A stretch of 64,000 nucleotides of DNA from the NCBI GenBank assembly GCA_964642305.1, contig CAZXOE010000005.1, positions 13,369 through 77,368 of the forward strand, in the 5' to 3' direction. The translations under genes were made by a program, and so were the position numbers. The stretch's first letter is position 1. Each line of letters opens with the position of its first letter. The notes under the pieces were generated by a model, which saw only the letters and a program-made list of their open reading frames with translations, had not been told where the DNA came from and searched no databases. The DNA is from an uncultured Candidatus Saccharibacteria bacterium. GTDB lineage: Bacteria; Patescibacteriota; Minisyncoccia; Phycocordibacterales; UBA1550. Positions 6,094-63,757 of the stretch are shown piece after piece.

Positions 6094-6465
6094 CTATTTA
6101 GGCTTTTTTGTCAAATTTTGTATATTCCTCTCGATTTTTTCTGATATAAGAAAAAGTCTCCTCTCTACTTCATTAAAGACTTCTTCATTTCTCCTTTTTA
6201 TAGTGCCTTCTGTTATTTTTATTGCATTCATCCAATCAATGAGATTCCTTTGATATGTCGCAATATATTCTATATCAGTTGTGTCACCATCGTTGAGCTT
6301 TTTAAGAACTGTATCAAAGATTGGCTCTGTTATAGAAAGTTGCCCTCTAATTTCATCCACACTTAAGCGGACATTTGTTCCTTCGAGTGTGGAATTGTGC
6401 TCTGGACTGTCAGCATTATTAGCATTTTCAAAACTAAATTGTTCCATTTCAATAGTATAACCCAT
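6094..6465 (-). CDS. Hypothetical protein
   Basis: 123 aa ORF with no recognisable motif. Confidence 0.35.
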   Translation of the reverse strand: MGYTIEMEQFSFENANNADSPEHNSTLEGTNVRLSVDEIRGQLSITEPIFDTVLKKLNDGDTTDIEYIATYQRNLIDWMNAIKITEGTIKRRNEEVFNEVERRLFLISEKIERNIQNLTKKPK

Positions 6466-41554: not shown

Positions 41555-41891
41555 ATTAGCGACGTAGACGAATCACCAGATTCGCGTCTTGGACGAAGAT
41601 AAAAAAGTAATCTTTTTCAGTACTGAGCCGAGGAGCTAATATATGGAGTACCATATAATGACGGCACTCGGACGTTGTGAAAGAGATTACTCATTCACAC
41701 GCTCCTCGTTTGTCATTATAGGTCAATACCGCGTGGTCTCAGCGTCCAAGACGTGAATTTGCTAATTCAGCCACGCTTTTGTACTCGACCTTTAGGTCAT
41801 TCTGGTGAATGAGAAGCGAATTCGAAGTATTTTAGGTCCAAGACCCGAATCTACTGATTCGCCTGCAGTCTCTGCCGCAGGGGCCTATATT
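41555..41891 (+). repeat. Copy A (long form, 337 bp) of a three-copy structured repeat family
   Basis: Shares blocks ATTAGCGACGTAG, GAGCCGAGGAGCTAATATA, GCGAATTCGAAGTATT and the terminal hairpin ...TCTCTGCCGCAGGGGCCTATATT with copies at 46840-46998 and 63598-63757. Confidence 0.8.
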
Positions 41892-41912: not shown

Positions 41913-44840
41913 CTAGAACATTCGGTACTTTATTTTTACAGAACTTCTAGCGCTACACGATGCGGAGCCTGCACCACCAGAGCCAGAGCATGTCCACATC
42001 CATGTCCCCCCATTATCAGAAGGGGTGGAATTACCAGCTGTTGTCGTACAAAGATTTGCAGTCGGCACTGTTGGTGTAGGAGTACCATGAGCGCTACCGC
42101 AAACGCCAGTGATATAACTTAAATTATAAACACGACATAGTGCGTTTGACCCTGTTCCACTATTATTTATTGCCATGCAACCCCATTCATAATACTGAGA
42201 TGTACCTGCTCCCGTAACTGCTGTAGGGGTACCATAGGAGCATAAGTTTGACGTAGGAGCTGTAAAAGAAGGAGTGTCCTCCGCGCTTCCGCACACGCCA
42301 TTTCTAGCAGTGGTGAACGAAACTTCTAGAGAATACCCTGTGCCATGCGAATTTGTTGCGTATCCACGCACGTAATATGTTGTTCCCTGCTGTAGCCCTG
42401 TTACGTTTATTGAATATGCTCCAAGTGTTGCTGGAGGCGCAGGTGTACAAGTTGCGCCGTTTGTATGACTAGGATTATTCATTATCCCATAGCAAACACC
42501 ACGCGCAGAAATTGATGGTGGGGTACGCTTGTGTAAATAAATCTTATTTTTTGGTGAACCTCCCTGGTAATATATTGATTTGCCATCTGGAGAAATTTGC
42601 ATTCCAGAAGTGAAAGAAGCAGAAGCACGGTTGTGCTCATACACAGGAGAAGTGGTGTCTATGCTTCCATCTGCTATACCTCTACGAAAAACAAAGATTT
42701 TGTCGAGAGATAGAAGATCACCAAACCCAAACCCGTAAACAGAATTTCCATCTGGAGATATTTTTATATTATCTATATTTCTACCTAAATTATAACTAGT
42801 TCCACCAGAAAGCAATCCTGTTGTTGTGTCGCGTGAGAACCTAGCTACCGCATTATAAATATTACCACCAATGTTAAGATAATCAGGATCATAAAATGGA
42901 TACACATATTTATCATCTGGTGAAACATAGACTTCCATGCTTGTAGGACGAGGCGCATCGGGGTAAAACACGAAAGTCCTGCCAGAAATCGTGCCAGTAA
43001 TTTGATTTCTAATGAACCTCCAAATCCTACTTGGAGGAGCACCTGATTCGTAATTTGCAGTATACAACGATTTACCATCTGATGAAAATGCGATATCACG
43101 CGCATACGCGGCCATAGTTGAAATATCAATAGTATTGCTCTCATTAGACAATGAACCATCAGCTAAATTTCGTGTACGCAATCTAAGCTTTCCCATGCTA
43201 GAAGTATCAGCAGATGTATATAAATGACTCCCGTCTGGAGATACAATAACCTCATGCGCTACATCAGTTGTTACGTAGGCAATCCTATTTGATAGTGTCC
43301 CATTATTTATATTCCTATCATATTTAACGATATATCTGCCCGTACCACCGGCAATAGAACACCCCGCATACACGTTCTTTCCGTCTGGTGATATAGTGAT
43401 AGGATTATTTATACCAATCGTGCAATTTCCTATATCATAGTTGGAAACATAGGTAAGCTCACCAGATTCATTTCTGTTGTATAAATATATCCCAGCTCTC
43501 TGGTTTGTTACATCGCCAATTGTTACTACATAAAAATGCTTTCCATCTGGCGAAGTAGCATTTGCTTGCAAACTTTCGTTAGTTGTTGCCAATGGTACAG
43601 TATACTCAATATATGGTTCCACCAGCTCCCCGCTGTAAGCTCCAAACGAGGTAACCTCCGCGCCGAGTGTTGCCGTGGTGGCTTTAATATATGTGCTTGT
43701 TGCGTTTATTACTGTAGGCAAAAGAGAAGTCTCTATGACATTTATGCTCGTCCATTCTCCGCAGTTGTTGTCTTCGGCTGTTGCAGGAGATTCAGTAATG
43801 ACACCTCCGCCAGCTGAAGCTGTTTTATCAGCGCACGACCTCACATAATACATACCACCTTCAGTAAATGTGTATGTTGTTGAAGATGCCACAGCGCTTG
43901 TGCCCGCGCCTAGAGCTGGCATTGTTTTAGGAGCAAGGTCGGTAATCGTGCCAGTCGTACTAGTAGCCACCTGAAAGAAATTTGGGAAACTCCCCCCAGT
44001 TGCCCCTGTGCCACTATTTGTTATGGCTGAATAAAAAAGTGTCGGCGAGTCAGTGATTACATTCACAGGGTACGAGGAACCCGCCGTGAGGTCTATATTT
44101 GTGGCTACATAGATACCATTAAAGGTAATCATACCACCAGAAGAAAGAGTGAGAGTTTCTGTTGCAGGTGTTGCGTATCCTGCAACATTCCCCCATGTTA
44201 TTGTGTATGTTCCTGTTGGCTTTGAGGTTGAAGTTTGAGAAGTGCCAGAGCCTGTGATTGTTGCTGGGCCAGTGATGGTCCAAGAGGATGAGATGTTTGA
44301 GGAGACGGATACGGTGCCGGTAGGAGAAGCAACTGTGATAAGGATACTAGAACTTCCGTCAAATCTAGGACTTAAATCATTAACCAGGCAGTCTGGGTCC
44401 TCTGCAGGACACCGTGGGTCACCAGCCCTTTTATAGTAGCTATCTAAATTAATAACATATGCGCCTGGAGTCATTGGAGCAGTAAGTACACCTGAGTGAA
44501 CCAATGTAACAGGATTAGGATTATACGGATGAGATAGAATATCTTCCATATTTTCTAAGTATGCATAATTCCCTTGAAGGGTCACGTAAATAGAATAATA
44601 ATAAAGAAGCTCTATTGGAATAAGTGTAGATAATGAACTGGTAAGATAAATATTTTCTCCTGGAGAAAATATTGTTTTGTTTATATTAACAGTGTAACTA
44701 TTTACATTAGTACCAAGGTAAGGATCTGTGCCCCAATAGGTTACCGCACCCACATCCTCAACTGCTACAATAAAAAACAATAAGGTAAGAAAAGTTGTTA
44801 AAAAGAATGACTTTGTTGTTTTTGTTAGTAGATTCTTCAT
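41913..44840 (-). CDS. Giant secreted surface protein: signal peptide, Ig-like domain shared with the 50058..51221 protein, YVTN-type beta-propeller repeats, Cys-rich C-terminus
   Basis: 975 aa. SPDGK/SSDGK..Y repeats. About 60 aa (SSSWTITGPATITGSGTSQTSTSKPTGTYTITWG) is near-identical to the paralog. Confidence 0.7.
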   Translation of the reverse strand: MKNLLTKTTKSFFLTTFLTLLFFIVAVEDVGAVTYWGTDPYLGTNVNSYTVNINKTIFSPGENIYLTSSLSTLIPIELLYYYSIYVTLQGNYAYLENMEDILSHPYNPNPVTLVHSGVLTAPMTPGAYVINLDSYYKRAGDPRCPAEDPDCLVNDLSPRFDGSSSILITVASPTGTVSVSSNISSSWTITGPATITGSGTSQTSTSKPTGTYTITWGNVAGYATPATETLTLSSGGMITFNGIYVATNIDLTAGSSYPVNVITDSPTLFYSAITNSGTGATGGSFPNFFQVATSTTGTITDLAPKTMPALGAGTSAVASSTTYTFTEGGMYYVRSCADKTASAGGGVITESPATAEDNNCGEWTSINVIETSLLPTVINATSTYIKATTATLGAEVTSFGAYSGELVEPYIEYTVPLATTNESLQANATSPDGKHFYVVTIGDVTNQRAGIYLYNRNESGELTYVSNYDIGNCTIGINNPITISPDGKNVYAGCSIAGGTGRYIVKYDRNINNGTLSNRIAYVTTDVAHEVIVSPDGSHLYTSADTSSMGKLRLRTRNLADGSLSNESNTIDISTMAAYARDIAFSSDGKSLYTANYESGAPPSRIWRFIRNQITGTISGRTFVFYPDAPRPTSMEVYVSPDDKYVYPFYDPDYLNIGGNIYNAVARFSRDTTTGLLSGGTSYNLGRNIDNIKISPDGNSVYGFGFGDLLSLDKIFVFRRGIADGSIDTTSPVYEHNRASASFTSGMQISPDGKSIYYQGGSPKNKIYLHKRTPPSISARGVCYGIMNNPSHTNGATCTPAPPATLGAYSINVTGLQQGTTYYVRGYATNSHGTGYSLEVSFTTARNGVCGSAEDTPSFTAPTSNLCSYGTPTAVTGAGTSQYYEWGCMAINNSGTGSNALCRVYNLSYITGVCGSAHGTPTPTVPTANLCTTTAGNSTPSDNGGTWMWTCSGSGGAGSASCSARSSVKIKYRMF

Positions 44841-44843
44841 TTA

Positions 44844-45320
44844 TTATTTTCTTAATACGCTAATACTCACCTGTGACTTCGCTGAATCTACATCGGAGTC
44901 ATAACTAATGGTCACATTAATATCATTACTTTCTTTTGTGCCATAGATAGAGGAAAGTTTTTCACTCTCGTATTTATTAGAAATATTCCACTGTTGTTTT
45001 TCAAAAAAACCAGTGTAGAGTGCGTAATTTTCTTTAACTGTTTTTGTGGAAAGAAAAACGATAGTGAGTTGCTTTTGACCAACATAATTCAAGCTATAGC
45101 TTTGTTTTAAATTTACCCCTTCCTCAACAGGTATATCTGTTGGAAAATCATTTGGTGCTTTTGCACCAAAATCTGTTCTTTTTGGCACTATATTTGTTGC
45201 AACATCATTTGTAGCTACATTTTTATTTTTTTCACTCCAAGAATACAGCAACAATGTAGCAACTACCAGTATGGCAATCCCAGATATGACAAGCAAGATA
45301 TTTCTATAATTCATTAACAT
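44844..45320 (-). CDS. Small membrane-anchored protein, paralog of 51218..51670
   Basis: 158 aa with an N-terminal TM; about 60% identical to the 150 aa paralog; lies 3 bp upstream of the giant protein gene. Confidence 0.6.
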   Translation of the reverse strand: MLMNYRNILLVISGIAILVVATLLLYSWSEKNKNVATNDVATNIVPKRTDFGAKAPNDFPTDIPVEEGVNLKQSYSLNYVGQKQLTIVFLSTKTVKENYALYTGFFEKQQWNISNKYESEKLSSIYGTKESNDINVTISYDSDVDSAKSQVSISVLRK

Positions 45321-45440
45321 TATTATACCCCCACACCTACTTTTTGCCTACTAGAGTTATCCACAAAGATAAATATATAAATGCGAATATAGTTTGTGAC
45401 TACAAAATCAATATGTAAAAGTAGGTGTGGGGGTGTACCC
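45321..45440 (-). promoter_or_regulatory. Second copy of the conserved upstream module: 17 bp inverted repeat CCCCCACACCTACTTTT / AAAAGTAGGTGTGGGGG plus TATAATAAT abutting the ATG
   Basis: First 25 nt are identical to 11999-12023. Confidence 0.5.
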
Positions 45441-45533
45441 CTAGAACTATTTTTTATATAACCTAATAGGCAAACTGGCTGTGGATAACTATCTAGGGAA
45501 TGCGGGCTATACTGCTCATTTTGACCGCGCAAA

Positions 45534-45574
45534 TACAAAAGTCGCCCAACGCTGTAGCGTTGGGCGACTTTTGT
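45534..45574 (-). terminator. 18 bp-stem hairpin 3' of tRNA-Asp
   Basis: ACAAAAGTCGCCCAACGC-TGTA-GCGTTGGGCGACTTTTGT. Confidence 0.8.
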
Positions 45575-45579
45575 ATTTG

Positions 45580-45654
45580 CGCGGTCGACCGGACTTGAAC
45601 CGGCAACCTCTCGCGTGACAGGCGAGTGCTACTAACCAGTTGAGCTACGACCGC
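45580..45654 (-). tRNA. tRNA-Asp (anticodon GTC)
   Basis: Acceptor GCGGTCG/CGACCGC, anticodon loop CTGTCAC, T-loop TTCAAGT, discriminator G. Confidence 0.8.
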
Positions 45655-46334
45655 AAATTCTTAAATTTGCCATATTTTTCAAACACAGCCTTCTTCCTAT
45701 CAAGAAAAAGCTTGTTCTTTGTATGACTTCTATGATTATACATAAAATCATAGAATTTCAAAGAGTCTTTTGTGCCAAACTGCAGACGGTAGCAATTTTC
45801 CTTTGGCTGGAAAATCGACCCTCCTTCAATGCCATAAATATTGAGCCTTTTGCGTATACTTTCTAAAAATACTTTTGAACACGAGGTTAATGCCACTTGA
45901 ATGGCAAGGCCTTGAGTTTCCCTCTCTTTATGAGTCACCCCAACCCAAACATTTCCATCACCATCAAAGTATCCTCTGACGAAATCAGAAAAATATTTTT
46001 GAGGGATGATTGGAACGACCAGATTTTTTGTTTTTCGCTCAGAGAAGCCAAGCTCTCTCAAATCCTCACACATCTCAATACTTCCAATCTGTAAACGATA
46101 AAGCGTGCTTTCATTTCCCCGCATAACACGAGTACTAATTTTGTGTTCCGACTGGATAGCTTTACGTATTTGCTCAAGAAGCTTTTTGTCAGTTATTTGA
46201 ATGCACCAAAATTGTCCACCTCGCTTGTTAACAGTAATGTACCCGTCAGCTGCAAAAAAACCTAGCACGTATGACATTTCTGGTGTCCATTTTTTAAAAA
46301 AACCTTTGTTTACTTTTTTTAATACTGGCACCAA
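45645..46334 (-). CDS. LAGLIDADG homing endonuclease (two motifs), free-standing; its 3' end overlaps the tRNA-Asp 5' end by 10 nt
   Basis: LGFFAADGY and RGYFDGDGN motifs. Confidence 0.8.
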   Translation of the reverse strand: MVPVLKKVNKGFFKKWTPEMSYVLGFFAADGYITVNKRGGQFWCIQITDKKLLEQIRKAIQSEHKISTRVMRGNESTLYRLQIGSIEMCEDLRELGFSERKTKNLVVPIIPQKYFSDFVRGYFDGDGNVWVGVTHKERETQGLAIQVALTSCSKVFLESIRKRLNIYGIEGGSIFQPKENCYRLQFGTKDSLKFYDFMYNHRSHTKNKLFLDRKKAVFEKYGKFKNLRS

Positions 46335-46398
46335 GTTATTATATCACGTGACAGGAAAGTATACTAGCCAACAAATTTGCATGCAAATTTTTCTATGG

Positions 46399-46470
46399 TG
46401 CCGATGAGTGGAATCGAACCACTATTTAGGGCTTATGAGTCCCTCGTTCTAACCATTGAACTACACCGGC
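46399..46470 (-). tRNA. tRNA-Met (anticodon CAT; elongator type with G1-C72; a lysidine-modified Ile2 tRNA cannot be excluded)
   Basis: GCCGGTGTAGTTCAATGGTTAGAACGAGGGACTCATAAGCCCTAAATAGTGGTTCGATTCCACTCATCGGCA. Confidence 0.75.
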
Positions 46471-46474
46471 TTAA

Positions 46475-47311
46475 TTAATATTTCTTCTTTACGGCATCAA
46501 TTAGCCCAAGTATCTCATATTTAAGTCTTGAACTTCTTCTTACCTTTAGTGACAAAATACCATAATATGAATCATAATTCTCATAAATCTTTTTTTGATT
46601 CATTTTTAAGAACACCTGATTACCAAACTGTGACTCAGGTAACTGTAACAGAGAAGACCAATATTTGACAACTTTTTTTATTCTTGGGCGGTGAATATCA
46701 TTAATAAATATTCTTGGCATAAAATCTTCATCATTCAGCTGAAACACTTTTTTGAACCACTTTTTCATCACAAGGATGATTTCTGGGTCAGAATTAACAA
46801 TTGCAAGAGCACTTCTATCACTCTTTGTACCCTCGCCCCAATATAGGCCCCTACGGCAGAGACCGCAGGGTAATACTTCGAATTCGCTTCGCTCATACAA
46901 AAGCGTGGCAGAGACCACGCGGTATTGACCTATATTAGCTCCTCGGCTCGGTGCTGAAAAAGATTACTTTTCCAGCACTCTCGCTCTACGTCGCTAATAA
47001 AGACCAACTCCTAGCATCAGTAAGTCTCTTTCTGTCATACGTCCCACAGTTTCTAAGGATTTCTTTTTACTGGCGCTCACGATATCCTGCTTTTTCTTGC
47101 GATTCATTTCAGCACCTATCATCCTGCCTTTATGCCCTGCAAGGATGGAACTCTGTCTAAGTCTACTCGTCTGTTTCTGTGTTAACACAACGCCCTGACA
47201 CCAAATACTTGCGGTTCCTTTTGATACGCCAACATGCTTAGCAATCGATCCTATGCTCCATCCCATTCTTCTTAATTTTTGAGCCCTAATCCTTTCTATG
47301 AACTTAGCCAT
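46475..47311 (-). pseudogene. HTH plus single-motif LAGLIDADG endonuclease gene split by insertion of repeat copy B
   Basis: ORF 46994..47311 ends ...LLMLGVGLY*, with the stop supplied by the repeat. ORF 46475..46918 resumes ...GLYWGEGTKSDRSALAIVNSDPEII. Joined, this gives a LAGLIDADG-like motif LGVGLYWGEGTK. Confidence 0.6.
46840..46998 (-). repeat. Copy B (short form, 159 bp) of the structured repeat family, inserted within a gene
   Basis: The reverse complement aligns block by block with copy C. Confidence 0.8.
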
Positions 47312-47351
47312 ATATATAATAATATCAGCTGTTCTAAAATAAACAAGACAT

Positions 47352-47401
47352 GAATTAAAGAATAACAGGTGTCATTTTAGACACCTGTTATTCTTTAATT
47401 C
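47352..47401 (-). terminator. 22 bp-stem hairpin immediately 3' of tRNA-fMet
   Basis: GAATTAAAGAATAACAGGTGTC-ATTTTA-GACACCTGTTATTCTTTAATTC. Confidence 0.6.
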
Positions 47402-47402
47402 A

Positions 47403-47477
47403 TGGTTGCGGGGGCCCGAATCGAACGGGCGTCTTCAGGTTATGAGCCTGATGAGATACCGCTTCTCTACCCCGCTA
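47403..47477 (-). tRNA. Initiator tRNA-fMet (anticodon CAT), CCA encoded
   Basis: Acceptor and 3' end ...GGCCCCCGCAACCA and the overall sequence closely resemble E. coli tRNAfMet; unpaired 1:72. Confidence 0.8.
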
Positions 47478-50057: not shown

Positions 50058-51221
50058 CTAAAACTGCCAAAAGCGAGTTTTTGGCTTGCAGTCAGCAAGA
50101 CACGATGTCGCTGTTTCTCCATCCTCGCAAACATTGTTACCACAAACAGGCGCAACTACTGTATTAGCACAGATTCCTGATGATAAATCTTGTCCAGCGG
50201 GACAAAGACTACATAGTGGCGGGTTCAATGCCAGATTATTGCATGTTGCGCCGTTCCCATAAATATCCCCAGCTCCACTACATCCACCAGTGCATACGAC
50301 ACAAAAAGAACCGTCGTACGCCTGACCAGTTGGACATACAGTGCAAGAAGAAGCGATTGTTGCTCCGTTTGAACATGATGTTAGTGTAAATGTCGCGCTC
50401 ACAGTACATGCTCCTGTGATTGCTCCTGTAGTGTATGTGGTGCCAGAGAGTGAACCTCCGCAACCAGAAGCTGATGCTGTGTAGCCAGCGTTTGATGTTA
50501 CTGTGAAGGTTGTGGTGTTCCCATGGCTAACTGTACGTGATGATGGAGAAATGGTACCATTAGCTCCCGCAGAGGTTGAGACGGTGTAGGAGTTTAGCGA
50601 GTAGTTCCCACTAAAACTAATCATACCACCAGAAGTTAGCGTAAGCGACTGAGATGCTGGTTTTGTATACCCAACTACATCTCCCCACGTTATTGTATAT
50701 GTTCCCGTTGGCTTTGAGGTTGAGGTTTGAGAAGTGCCAGAGCCAGTGATTGTTGCTGGTCCAGTAATGGTCCAAGTGGATGAGATGTTTGAGGAGACGG
50801 AGACGGTGCCGGTGGTTGGAACAGCAGTAACAGTGAATAGTATCTCTGCAATAGGATAATAGCAATCGGTCCAGCATCCCCATTTACTTAGCATAGATCC
50901 TAAAATATATACACCAGGTGTATTAGGTACATTTATATTAATTGGTCCGCTGGCTGGAAAAAAACCAAGTACCTCAAACCAACTACCGTCTAAAGACAAA
51001 AAATAAAGATCACTCCAATCATAACCATGGGTGTCATTTAAAATTGTTCGGTTTAACGACATTGACTCACCAACTGTATAAACATCCTTATTGCTTGTTA
51101 TTGTATATGATCCATTTGAAGTGCCAAGGAGACCTATAGTAACAGTTGCCCCAAAAACATTTAGTGGTAGAACAAAAAGAAGGATTACAGCAAACAAAAT
51201 TGTTTTAAAAATTTTCATCAT
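50058..51221 (-). CDS. Secreted surface protein with the shared Ig-like domain and a Cys-rich C-terminal region
   Basis: Signal peptide; domain VSVSSNISSTWTITGPATITGSGTSQTSTSKPTGTYTITWG; more than 25 Cys in the last 120 aa. Confidence 0.65.
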   Translation of the reverse strand: MMKIFKTILFAVILLFVLPLNVFGATVTIGLLGTSNGSYTITSNKDVYTVGESMSLNRTILNDTHGYDWSDLYFLSLDGSWFEVLGFFPASGPININVPNTPGVYILGSMLSKWGCWTDCYYPIAEILFTVTAVPTTGTVSVSSNISSTWTITGPATITGSGTSQTSTSKPTGTYTITWGDVVGYTKPASQSLTLTSGGMISFSGNYSLNSYTVSTSAGANGTISPSSRTVSHGNTTTFTVTSNAGYTASASGCGGSLSGTTYTTGAITGACTVSATFTLTSCSNGATIASSCTVCPTGQAYDGSFCVVCTGGCSGAGDIYGNGATCNNLALNPPLCSLCPAGQDLSSGICANTVVAPVCGNNVCEDGETATSCLADCKPKTRFWQF

Positions 51222-51670
51222 TTCTTTAATACACTAATACTCACCTGATCTCTTGTGATAGTAATGCTCATATCATTATTCCATTTTGTGCCATAGAGTG
51301 ATGACACGTTGTCGCTCTCATACTTATTAACAATACTCCAATTTTGTTTTTCGAGAAAATCAGTGTAGAGTGTGTAGTTTTCTTTGACTGTTTTTGCTGA
51401 ATCAAAAACTATCGTCATTTGTTTCTGTCCGACGTAATTCAAGCTATAACTCTGCTCAAATTTTGCACCATTCTCAATAGGTATATTTGTCGGAAAATCG
51501 GTTGGCACATTTGTTCCAAAATCTGTCCTCTGTGGCTCCTTTATAATTACATCTGTCTTCTCTAATACAGGTGCAGGAACCTTGCTTATGTTTTGCTTAT
51601 ACAAAAAAAGAGTGCCTACAACGAGAACAATGATACTGATAATAACTATTATTATATTTCTATAATTCAT
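51218..51670 (-). CDS. Small membrane-anchored protein, paralog of 44844..45320
   Basis: 150 aa with an N-terminal TM; overlaps the downstream gene by 4 nt. Confidence 0.6.
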   Translation of the reverse strand: MNYRNIIIVIISIIVLVVGTLFLYKQNISKVPAPVLEKTDVIIKEPQRTDFGTNVPTDFPTNIPIENGAKFEQSYSLNYVGQKQMTIVFDSAKTVKENYTLYTDFLEKQNWSIVNKYESDNVSSLYGTKWNNDMSITITRDQVSISVLKK

Positions 51671-51678
51671 TGCTTTTA

Positions 51679-54196
<2,518 letters not shown>

Positions 54197-63597: not shown

Positions 63598-63757
63598 ATT
63601 AGCGACGTAGAGCGAGCGAAATGAAAAAATAATTTTTTTCATTTCCGAGCCGAGAAGCTAATATAGATATAATACCACGTGGCTCGCCACGTGAACAGTA
63701 CGAGCGAAGCGAGTTCTACCAATACCTCGGGGCTCTGCCCCGAGGGTTCTCTATTTT
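63598..63757 (+). repeat. Copy C (short form, 160 bp) of the structured repeat family
   Basis: ATTAGCGACGTAGAGCGAGCG ... CCGAGCCGAGAAGCTAATATA ... GAGCGAAGCGAGTTC ... CCTCGGGGCTCTGCCCCGAGG. Confidence 0.8.

Follow-up and report, generated by a model that had tools for sequence, protein, structure and literature searches.

Two open reading frames (ORFs) at positions 46475-47311 of a Candidatus Saccharibacteria genome are separated by a copy of a short structured repeat, here called copy B, on the minus strand of a 64,000-nt stretch from an uncultured member of this group (assembly GCA_964642305.1, contig CAZXOE010000005.1, positions 13,369 to 77,368; the whole stretch is referred to as the window). 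Are these ORFs two genes or the halves of one gene into which the repeat has inserted, and in the latter case, what kind of element is the repeat and what has become of the gene? A first-pass annotation made from the sequence alone had proposed that copy B split the gene of a homing endonuclease with an N-terminal helix-turn-helix (HTH) and a LAGLIDADG motif, leaving an inactivated pseudogene.

An element copy within a conserved gene

The upstream ORF (46994-47311, minus strand) encodes 105 amino acids (aa), matches Pfam HTH_23 at residues 3-37 and ends with ...ERDLLMLGVGLY, and the ORF listed at 46475-46918, which is identical to protein P0035, includes ...RGLYWGEGTKSDRSALAIVNSDPEII. Both ORFs share one frame and are 52 codons apart, with two in-frame stops, TAG and TAA, in between. 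The TAG (46994-46996) follows immediately after Tyr105 and represents the first three bases of the insert in that register, confirming that the stop codon of the 105-aa ORF comes from the repeat; the TAA lies 11 codons further on in the same frame. The downstream ORF opens at a GTG within the element, so that its first 26 codons are element-derived, and reading of the start context revealed no ribosome-binding site at a usable distance from this GTG. Codons 106-226 of the gene itself and its stop (WGEGTKSDRS...KKKY) occupy 46475-46840.

Deletion of the 156 nt of copy B (46841-46996, minus strand) yields a 226-aa protein that contains ...LLMLGVGLYWGEGTKSDRSALA... and has an HTH at its N-terminus, then a long helix, and at its C-terminus a conserved alpha/beta domain with the motif GxxLYWGEG. 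This repaired protein retrieved 122 homologs, nearly all of them 218-240 aa long and covering the whole query and over 100 of them intact at its own length, with P0001 (84% identity) and P0002 (78%) as top matches at 100% coverage. The homologs carry an unbroken ...LLMLG(I/T)GLYWGEGTKS..., i.e., the motif restored by joining the two ORFs, and no ortholog with two naturally separate genes at the insertion point was seen. Alignment with intact orthologs also recovered the empty site, which reads without interruption GGTCTTTAT↓TGGGGCGAAGG in the L005 ortholog and GGTCTTTAC↓TGGGGTGAGGG in the syntenic L004 ortholog (the arrow marks the point of insertion). Across the insertion the window sequence is GGTCTTTAT(TAGCGACG...GGGGCCTATAT)TGGGGCGAGGG, with the insert in parentheses; its removal recreates the empty-site sequence of the ortholog, GGTCTTTAT↓TGGGGCGA, and the reconstructed empty site of the window gene is GCTAGGAGTTGGTCTTTATTGGGGCGAGGGTACAAAG. 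P0002 is a positional ortholog, encoded in the order GatC, GatA, a ~221-aa protein, tRNA-Met, the gene and a second tRNA-Met.

Contigs in metagenome assemblies can be misjoined at repeats, and an assembly or chimera artefact could have produced such an arrangement. However, contigs of 164 kb, 59 kb and 1.7 kb from three independently assembled ENA samples carry the 837-nt interrupted gene with 100% identity, and the downstream ORF is recorded from five contigs. Moreover, both flanks are parts of one gene in one frame and together match the orthologs' empty-site sequence exactly, and the synteny GatC-GatA-223 aa-tRNA-gene-tRNA is kept. As no fewer than three independent assemblies contain this allele, there is next to no chance that the arrangement is an assembly error, and because the orthologs are unbroken, a naturally split gene is excluded as well. 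Judged from its translation, its homologs and their empty sites, the locus is one gene of 226 codons (46475-47311, minus strand) interrupted by a 156-nt element copy, as the first-pass annotation had held, and represents a clean gene disruption with an exactly recoverable empty site.

Insertions in other genomes

Two further genomes carry copies within genes. In L106, a 154-nt copy in antisense orientation splits a gene of ~308 aa whose intact homologs show up to 93% identity at full coverage. In L111, a 96-nt copy lies in sense orientation within alaS and is translated as 32 extra residues compared to a solved alanyl-tRNA synthetase (AlaRS). The length of this copy is a multiple of three and it is read in the sole stop-free frame of the element core (ATT AGC GAC GTA GAG ... 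CCG AGC CGA GGA GCT AAT), as expected if the element is neither spliced out nor skipped by ribosomes. With the window gene and its empty sites, these make three independent events which show, by comparison with uninterrupted relatives, that the repeat family is mobile, in agreement with the original proposal. A search of 5.8 billion proteins with the element-encoded peptide returned one marginal match only.

A 739-aa ORF in L107 (2259-4478, minus strand) joins two glycosyltransferase-like parts via an element-encoded linker (ISDVERERLKSEASQPPSRGANM), and the element may have fused two adjacent genes here. As a further in-frame insertion this locus was set aside as ambiguous, since it could represent a fusion of two adjacent glycosyltransferase ORFs. 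The alaS gene of L111 (298-2667, from a Paceibacterota metagenome-assembled genome (MAG)) also carries a separate insertion of ~150 residues in the catalytic domain (NVMLIDGMHCLYDKNF...), which is HAD-like by look.

Architecture of the element

Two other copies in the window were identified with a covariance model. Copy A (41557-41890, plus strand), also detected by repeat finding, is an expanded variant of 334 nt whose loops contain additional small hairpins of the type GAATC...GATTCGCGTCTTGGAC; it lies between genes, in the opposite orientation to those that flank it. Copy C (63600-63754, plus strand, 155 nt; 89 bits) is flanked by two minus-strand genes of a pilus-like operon and adjoins the start codon of one of them. 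Overall, elements are ~70-340 nt long with a bimodal distribution near 100 and near 150 nt, and expanded forms reach 334 nt.

The element consists of two modules. In module 1 (in copy B at 46933-47000, minus strand; 88.5 bits, E 4.6e-27), a 7-bp P1 helix, TATTAGC/GCTAATA, closes an internal loop and a variable hairpin. The GA-rich loop of copy B holds the near-invariant GACGTAGAGCGAG and CGAGCCGAGGA; its two sides are GACGTAGA and CGAGGA, and the invariant loop can also be given as GACGUAGA/CGAGGA. Past the loop come the short GCGAG/CGAGC helix, a one-base bulge and the variable hairpin, P2; the short helix contains a tandem G-A/A-G pair, found in 62 of 62 sequences. Module 2 is formed by a helix ATA(T/C)AGGNN/NNCCT(A/T)TAT around zero to three GC-rich hairpins, each of which is preceded by (A/T)TACC; the 3′ end of the element (GGCCTATAT) pairs with an internal ATATAGGTC. 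P2 starts ~18 nt (18-19) from the left junction and the last hairpin ends 9 nt before the right end. Terminal inverted repeats are absent: the 5′ end, TAGCGACGTAGAG, differs from the reverse complement of the 3′ end, ATATAGGCCCCTACGG, and the repeat finder shows no arms.

Covariation supports this fold. In P2, 12 of 14 pairs show compensatory changes, double-change cells number 137 compared to 31 in shuffled alignments, and 89% of the cells pair versus 43-49% after a shift of the partner by one to three columns. In an alignment of 21 rows, one of which is an unrelated sequence, 23 of 35 predicted pairs covary, including those of the module-2 hairpins. Copy B folds with -65.8 kcal/mol on the sense strand of the gene and with -48 on the other strand. 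The mismatches in P2 (33 G-T and 25 A-C) show no strand bias, and RNA and DNA structure are therefore indistinguishable by that test.

A hairpin module of ~25 nt that ends with GCGTCTTGGAC is nested in the loops of some element copies, in copy A at 41563-41595, 41743-41775 and ~41830-41860 and elsewhere in L019, L021 and L039. The string CGTCTTGGAC has five exact matches in ~1.1 Mb of sequence, all within elements of the TTAT↓T hairpin family described below; the window contains two of them and L019, L021 and L039 one apiece. A weak module-1 match at 6119-6179 of the window (minus strand; 17.2 bits, E 0.013) is either a degenerate relic or due to chance.

Distribution and target site

When one genome per species was scanned for TTAGCGACGTAGA-N(30-60)-GAGCCGAG, the pattern revealed at least 117 loci with at least 124 non-redundant copies in many lineages of the Patescibacteria, whose tiny genomes are generally thought to be poor in mobile elements. 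Among the matches listed, loci come from MAGs labelled Paceibacterota, Minisyncoccia and 'Saccharibacteria' as well as Yonath-, Vogel-, Nomura-, Taylor-, Kaiser-, Azam-, Komeili-, Magasanik-, Buchanan-, Doudna- and Shapirobacteria, and a few element contigs are found in bins labelled as other phyla. Several genomes carry many copies. No copies were found in the viral contigs searched or near 80 genes related to the interrupted gene. In Rfam searches, the whole window gave only tRNAs at gathering thresholds, and the region around the insert gave nothing meaningful at E up to 10. Searches of the literature by sequence strings and by topic returned no description of the element, and the family apparently has not been described before. 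The element is a small, non-autonomous structured repeat of unusual architecture and with an unusually wide, conserved distribution. In uncultivated lineages it can be used to mark recent changes of the genome, and annotators should expect broken or extended ORFs where it occurs.

In 105-113 of 115 copies, TTA(T) forms the 5′ flank and is itself preceded by T-rich sequence, and the 3′ end is ...CCTWTAT, mostly followed by a T, indicating orientation-specific insertion at TTAT↓T. The window target, GGTCTTTAT↓T (empty site GGTCTTTAT↓TGG), agrees with this consensus. Since the end of the element recreates the target, head-to-tail tandems can form, as seen in L026, L075, L101, L109 and L116. The Vogelbacteria genome SpSt-1164, the source of over a dozen loci, contains head-to-tail tandem arrays of module 1 on its own (L026, L075, L081, L094 and L101); the units recur every 76-79 nt and are connected by the linker GGAAGGGTTTTATT.

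A terminator-like hairpin with a T-run directly precedes 17 of 103 copies, compared to 2.5% of control TTAT↓T sites. Elements have the same orientation as the upstream gene in 43 cases and the opposite one in 26, and with respect to the downstream gene the numbers are 30 and 31; this mixed orientation argues against a fixed cis-acting RNA role. Copies inside genes are rare (roughly 3 in 124).

The two junctions of copy B had been suggested to carry an imperfect target duplication, GGCCTAT on one side and GGTCTTT on the other. This could not be upheld. On the sense strand of the gene, copy B begins and ends with TAGCGACGTAGAGCGAG...GGGGCCTATAT, and GGCCTATAT is the element's own 3′ end, which is also present in the differently flanked copy A; likewise, the 3′ end GGGGCCTATAT recurs in copies from other genomes (L036, L041, L077 and L089). 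Only TATT is common to both junctions, so that the limits of copy B can slide by up to 3 nt to the left or 1 nt to the right. Across 50 copies, permutation showed no copy-specific similarity between the 5′ flank and the copy's own 3′ end beyond TAT (p = 0.5), and the heptamer duplication is rejected on this ground. Pairing of the 5′ flank with the complementary internal ATATAGGNN was considered as a guide to the target and discarded, as it did not exceed the permutation expectation in the same number of copies (p ~0.5).

Identity of the interrupted gene

The HTH of the interrupted gene is solid at the profile level: Pfam HTH_23 matches 48 of 52 members of the family, and a profile match reaches the PAI subdomain of Sleeping Beauty. 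The LAGLIDADG assignment did not find comparable support. A scan of the 52 members at E up to 1 listed 25 Pfam families, none of them a LAGLIDADG family, the repaired window protein has no LAGLIDADG Pfam match at E up to 0.1, and an hhalign comparison to a genuine LAGLIDADG_3 protein encoded nearby gave nothing (probability 0.1). Foldseek searches of PDB and BFVD with confident models (predicted local distance difference test score, pLDDT, ~92; 92.9 for the 84%-identical ortholog), either full-length or domain-only, returned no significant match. The C-terminal domain has weak profile matches to I-DmoI (E 0.017-0.03), and LAGLIDADG or intein proteins are scattered among the insignificant fold matches. 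The motif helix, which ends in the invariant WGEG, is at most compatible with a distant relative, and the label of an HTH-LAGLIDADG homing endonuclease remains unproven. Of the claim that a homing endonuclease was inactivated, the N-terminal HTH stands and the endonuclease label does not.

The genomic context points elsewhere. In 34 of 34 loci, covering family members with protein identity down to ~35% (L004 and L123-L201), a tRNA-Met(CAT) gene follows directly on the same strand within a few to ~200 bases, which is not the sporadic pattern of a homing endonuclease. In the window, this tRNA-Met (46396-46470, minus strand) lies 4 nt downstream of the interrupted gene. A second tRNA-Met often precedes the HTH gene, in the window at 47403-47476. 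The family is large, with at least 558 confirmed relatives among at least 600 matched stretches in a metagenome scan. The conserved gene order points to co-transcription or a functional tie of the HTH gene with a CAU-anticodon tRNA. Thus, the label needs correction: the interrupted gene encodes a conserved HTH protein tied to tRNA-Met, not a demonstrated LAGLIDADG homing endonuclease.

Fate of the interrupted gene

The TAG of the element would end translation after Tyr105, and codons 106-226, without a plausible start, would not be made, leaving a truncated HTH fragment or a null allele. Truncation or knockout of the HTH gene, with presumed loss of function, is the most likely outcome; the gene is split by the insertion, as the first-pass annotation had stated, and 'pseudogene' is the likeliest reading of this split. 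Several observations weigh against it. Compared to the L005 ortholog, the ratio of nonsynonymous to synonymous substitution rates (dN/dS) is 0.10 overall, 0.15 in the upstream half and 0.05 in the downstream half, and both halves are undamaged with intact ORFs; such low values fit a recent insertion and a gene still under selection equally well. The interrupted allele is found in every assembly that carries the gene, with no intact allele seen from the same population, and appears to be fixed in the population sampled. Moreover, the junctions have a formal bypass geometry, with UAU UAG as take-off and UAU as landing site. Thus, either the insertion is young or selection on the gene persists, and the substitution data would fit both.

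Since the window frame continues TAT↓TAG and then TAA, readthrough is not an option. In translational bypass, which occurs in phage T4 gene 60 and in the mitochondrial 'byp' elements of Magnusiomyces, peptidyl-tRNA-Tyr would leave the UAU at the UAG, slide over the element, land on the 3′ UAU and resume at UGG. Identical take-off and landing codons (TAT TAG ... TAT TGG) with a stop right after take-off, a strongly structured 156-nt gap, a downstream half without decay (dN/dS 0.05) and an interrupted allele that is the only one seen in several samples would all suit this mechanism. However, matching TAT codons are present at nearly all copies, including intergenic ones, because the conserved ends of the element and the TTAT↓T target yield them automatically. 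Known bypassed gaps span 27-55 nt, and we know of none as long as 156 nt. In addition, the copy within the essential alaS gene of L111 lies in a stop-free frame and is translated rather than skipped, in-gene copies are as rare as noted above, and the protein search returned just the one marginal match to the element-encoded peptide. With the gap three to five times longer than in T4 gene 60 and the byps, which are mobile inserts in coding regions and share with the window locus the matching end codons, the stop after the first of them and a structured gap, with matching codons explained by target and end sequence, and with alaS arguing for translation, we consider bypass very unlikely.

The conserved, covarying multi-helix structure, its better folding on the sense strand of the gene and the sense orientation of copy B could also be expected of an intron-like RNA that excises from the transcript, joining ...GGUCUUUAU to UGGGGCGAG and thereby repairing the mRNA. 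Against this, the element has no Rfam match even at E up to 10, none of the five boundary registers ends in G, as required for group I introns, and no register combines a GUGYG start with an AY end, as in group II. With 70-156 nt, the element is far below the size of self-splicing introns. Its orientation to neighbouring genes is mixed, with copies A and C antisense and the L106 copy antisense to the gene it splits, the alaS copy is translated and not removed, and the G-T and A-C mismatches of P2 are free of strand bias. Repair of the mRNA by excision is accordingly highly improbable.

Could the two halves act as separate polypeptides, i.e., an HTH protein and a C-terminal domain made from an internal start? 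Both halves are intact, the predicted structure consists of two separable parts linked by a long helix, and short ORFs comprising only the C-terminal part of the family are present in the database (P0104, P0110 and P0111). However, such a tolerated split would need the GTG start within the element, without a usable Shine-Dalgarno sequence and with 26 element-derived residues, and P0110 stems from a frameshifted gene copy, not from a designed split. Furthermore, the motif is contiguous in all of the at least 558 metagenomic relatives, although the search pattern demanded contiguity. Separate function of the halves is thus unlikely, and truncation or knockout remains the favored outcome. In L123 (1071-1986; GCA_027082835.1), the orthologous HTH gene is present as overlapping ORFs of 75 and 161 aa in a frameshift-like arrangement, indicating that the gene can decay in other lineages without the element.

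Relation to known elements and mode of movement

MITEs (miniature inverted-repeat transposable elements) have as their defining traits terminal inverted repeats together with a fixed target duplication that a DDE transposase produces. Like the MITEs Correia, ERIC and RUP, the present element is small, non-autonomous, multi-copy and gene-disrupting; in contrast to them, it lacks terminal inverted repeats, and its junctions have no more than 4 nt in common. At copy B these amount to TATT at most, and a duplication of 2-4 nt at an always identical target looks the same as none. Lacking terminal inverted repeats, the element does not qualify as a classical MITE, nor does it qualify as a self-splicing group I or II intron. 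The Rickettsia palindromic elements (RPEs) are short structured repeats which occur in frame within genes and whose mobilising enzyme is not known. The translated alaS copy of L111, with its 32 added residues, resembles them, but sequences and host lineage are unrelated, in-gene copies are few here (~3 in 124), and the window copy brings stops instead of an open peptide.

Repetitive extragenic palindromic (REP) elements, imperfect palindromes of 20-40 bp that carry an unpaired GTAG or CGTC tag at one end, are mobilised by the REP-associated tyrosine (HUH) transposases RAYT/TnpA-REP (PMC3733652). In this account, REPs share with our element that they are small, non-coding, high-copy, mostly extragenic and often downstream of genes, that an imperfect palindrome stands beside a conserved unpaired tag (here possibly GTAG, beside the hairpin foot), and that in-gene copies are occasional, terminal inverted repeats are absent and an enzyme would be needed in trans. 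GTAG is invariant one base 5′ of the extended hairpin GCGAG...CGAGC, but it belonged to the search pattern. REPs differ in being single 20-40 bp hairpins, usually in inverted pairs and restricted to one or a few species. The element reported here measures 70-340 nt, is built from two stem-closed modules with as many as four or more hairpins, is usually single or head-to-tail, and has a core that is almost identical across many candidate phyla of the Patescibacteria.

For the IS200/IS605 family of insertion sequences (IS), a single-strand mechanism has been described (PMC6006769). With this family and its non-autonomous derivatives, the palindrome-associated transposable elements (PATEs), our element shares the absence of terminal inverted repeats, the presence of hairpins, here covarying, near both ends, and insertion in one orientation 3′ of a short specific sequence (here TTAT) without a demonstrable target duplication. 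The distances from the left junction to the first hairpin (~18-19 nt) and from the last hairpin to the right end (~9 nt) resemble the hairpin-to-end spacing generally given for IS608. In contrast to IS200/IS605, no TnpA gene was seen in or near any copy or in the 1.1 Mb searched, the left hairpin does not resemble the right one, the invariant part is formed by the unpaired bases of the internal loop and the stems are free to vary, and the 3′ end (xTAT) mimics the target. By analogy, the element seems to behave most like REP/RAYT and IS200/IS605, and it would take the enzyme to claim membership in the HUH-mobilised families.

The non-autonomous, hairpin-structured element has inserted in a defined orientation at a TTAT↓T site that separates codons 105 and 106. 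In a model based on these likenesses, an enzyme acting in trans, such as the HUH tyrosine transposases of IS200/IS605 and REP/RAYT, would recognise its folded single-stranded DNA. Movement by an HUH-type enzyme is a tentative proposal. More broadly, the 'TTAGCGACG' elements could conceivably represent a new class of structured mobile DNA across Patescibacteria with the invariant GA-rich loop, in place of terminal repeats, as recognition site of a trans-acting enzyme that inserts them at TTAT↓T, a suggestion we make with the same reserve; such an enzyme could work on hairpins of single-stranded DNA or via RNA. The family raises the question of which enzyme recognises the invariant loop. If true, no phylum-wide family of mobile repeats would have preceded this one in these reduced genomes; it would be capable of splitting genes, adding peptide segments to essential proteins and piling up behind terminators.

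Several results count against this model. Clustering of the 1033 ORFs within 2.5 kb of the copies revealed no transposase and no enriched family but only scattered housekeeping genes, and in L026 the ORFs enclosed by inverted copies encode ribosomal proteins and SSB. No RAYT gene was seen in the 8-kb regions around copies, and a tblastn search with an IS200 TnpA query gave no match in the 1.1 Mb of Patescibacteria sequence. A longer, ORF-carrying version of the element was not seen; every copy ends within ~340 nt at ...TAT. In addition, the conservation of the core was partly imposed by the exact collection pattern, which required both blocks. This concern is limited, because columns not required by the pattern (GCGAG, GAGCTAATA and the TTA flank) are at least 90% conserved and divergent copies are few in a profile search: nhmmer detected 138 copies in the 1.1 Mb of collected sequence, of which 14 lie beyond the exact pattern and differ by 1-3 core bases, some of them with compensating changes in P1.

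Other features of the window

A 229-aa two-motif LAGLIDADG_3 protein (Pfam E 1.3e-14) is encoded at 45645-46334 on the minus strand, between tRNA-Met and tRNA-Asp, and its gene overlaps tRNA-Asp by 10 nt. In L004 and several relatives, tRNA-Met and tRNA-Asp are only ~10-260 nt apart without a LAGLIDADG_3 gene. From this comparison, it is the LAGLIDADG_3 gene that shows the presence/absence pattern of a free-standing homing endonuclease.

About 1.2 kb are duplicated between 44110-45330 and 50602-51685 with 77-88% identity, spanning a 158-aa ORF and the end of a 975-aa surface-protein-like ORF. The window also contains four perfect inverted repeats with arms of 25-31 nt and loops of 0-6 nt (631-693, 1607-1668, 45523-45586 and 47349-47404). 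The third is located just past tRNA-Asp and the fourth separates the upstream tRNA-Met from the start of the HTH gene, and all four may be bidirectional terminators.

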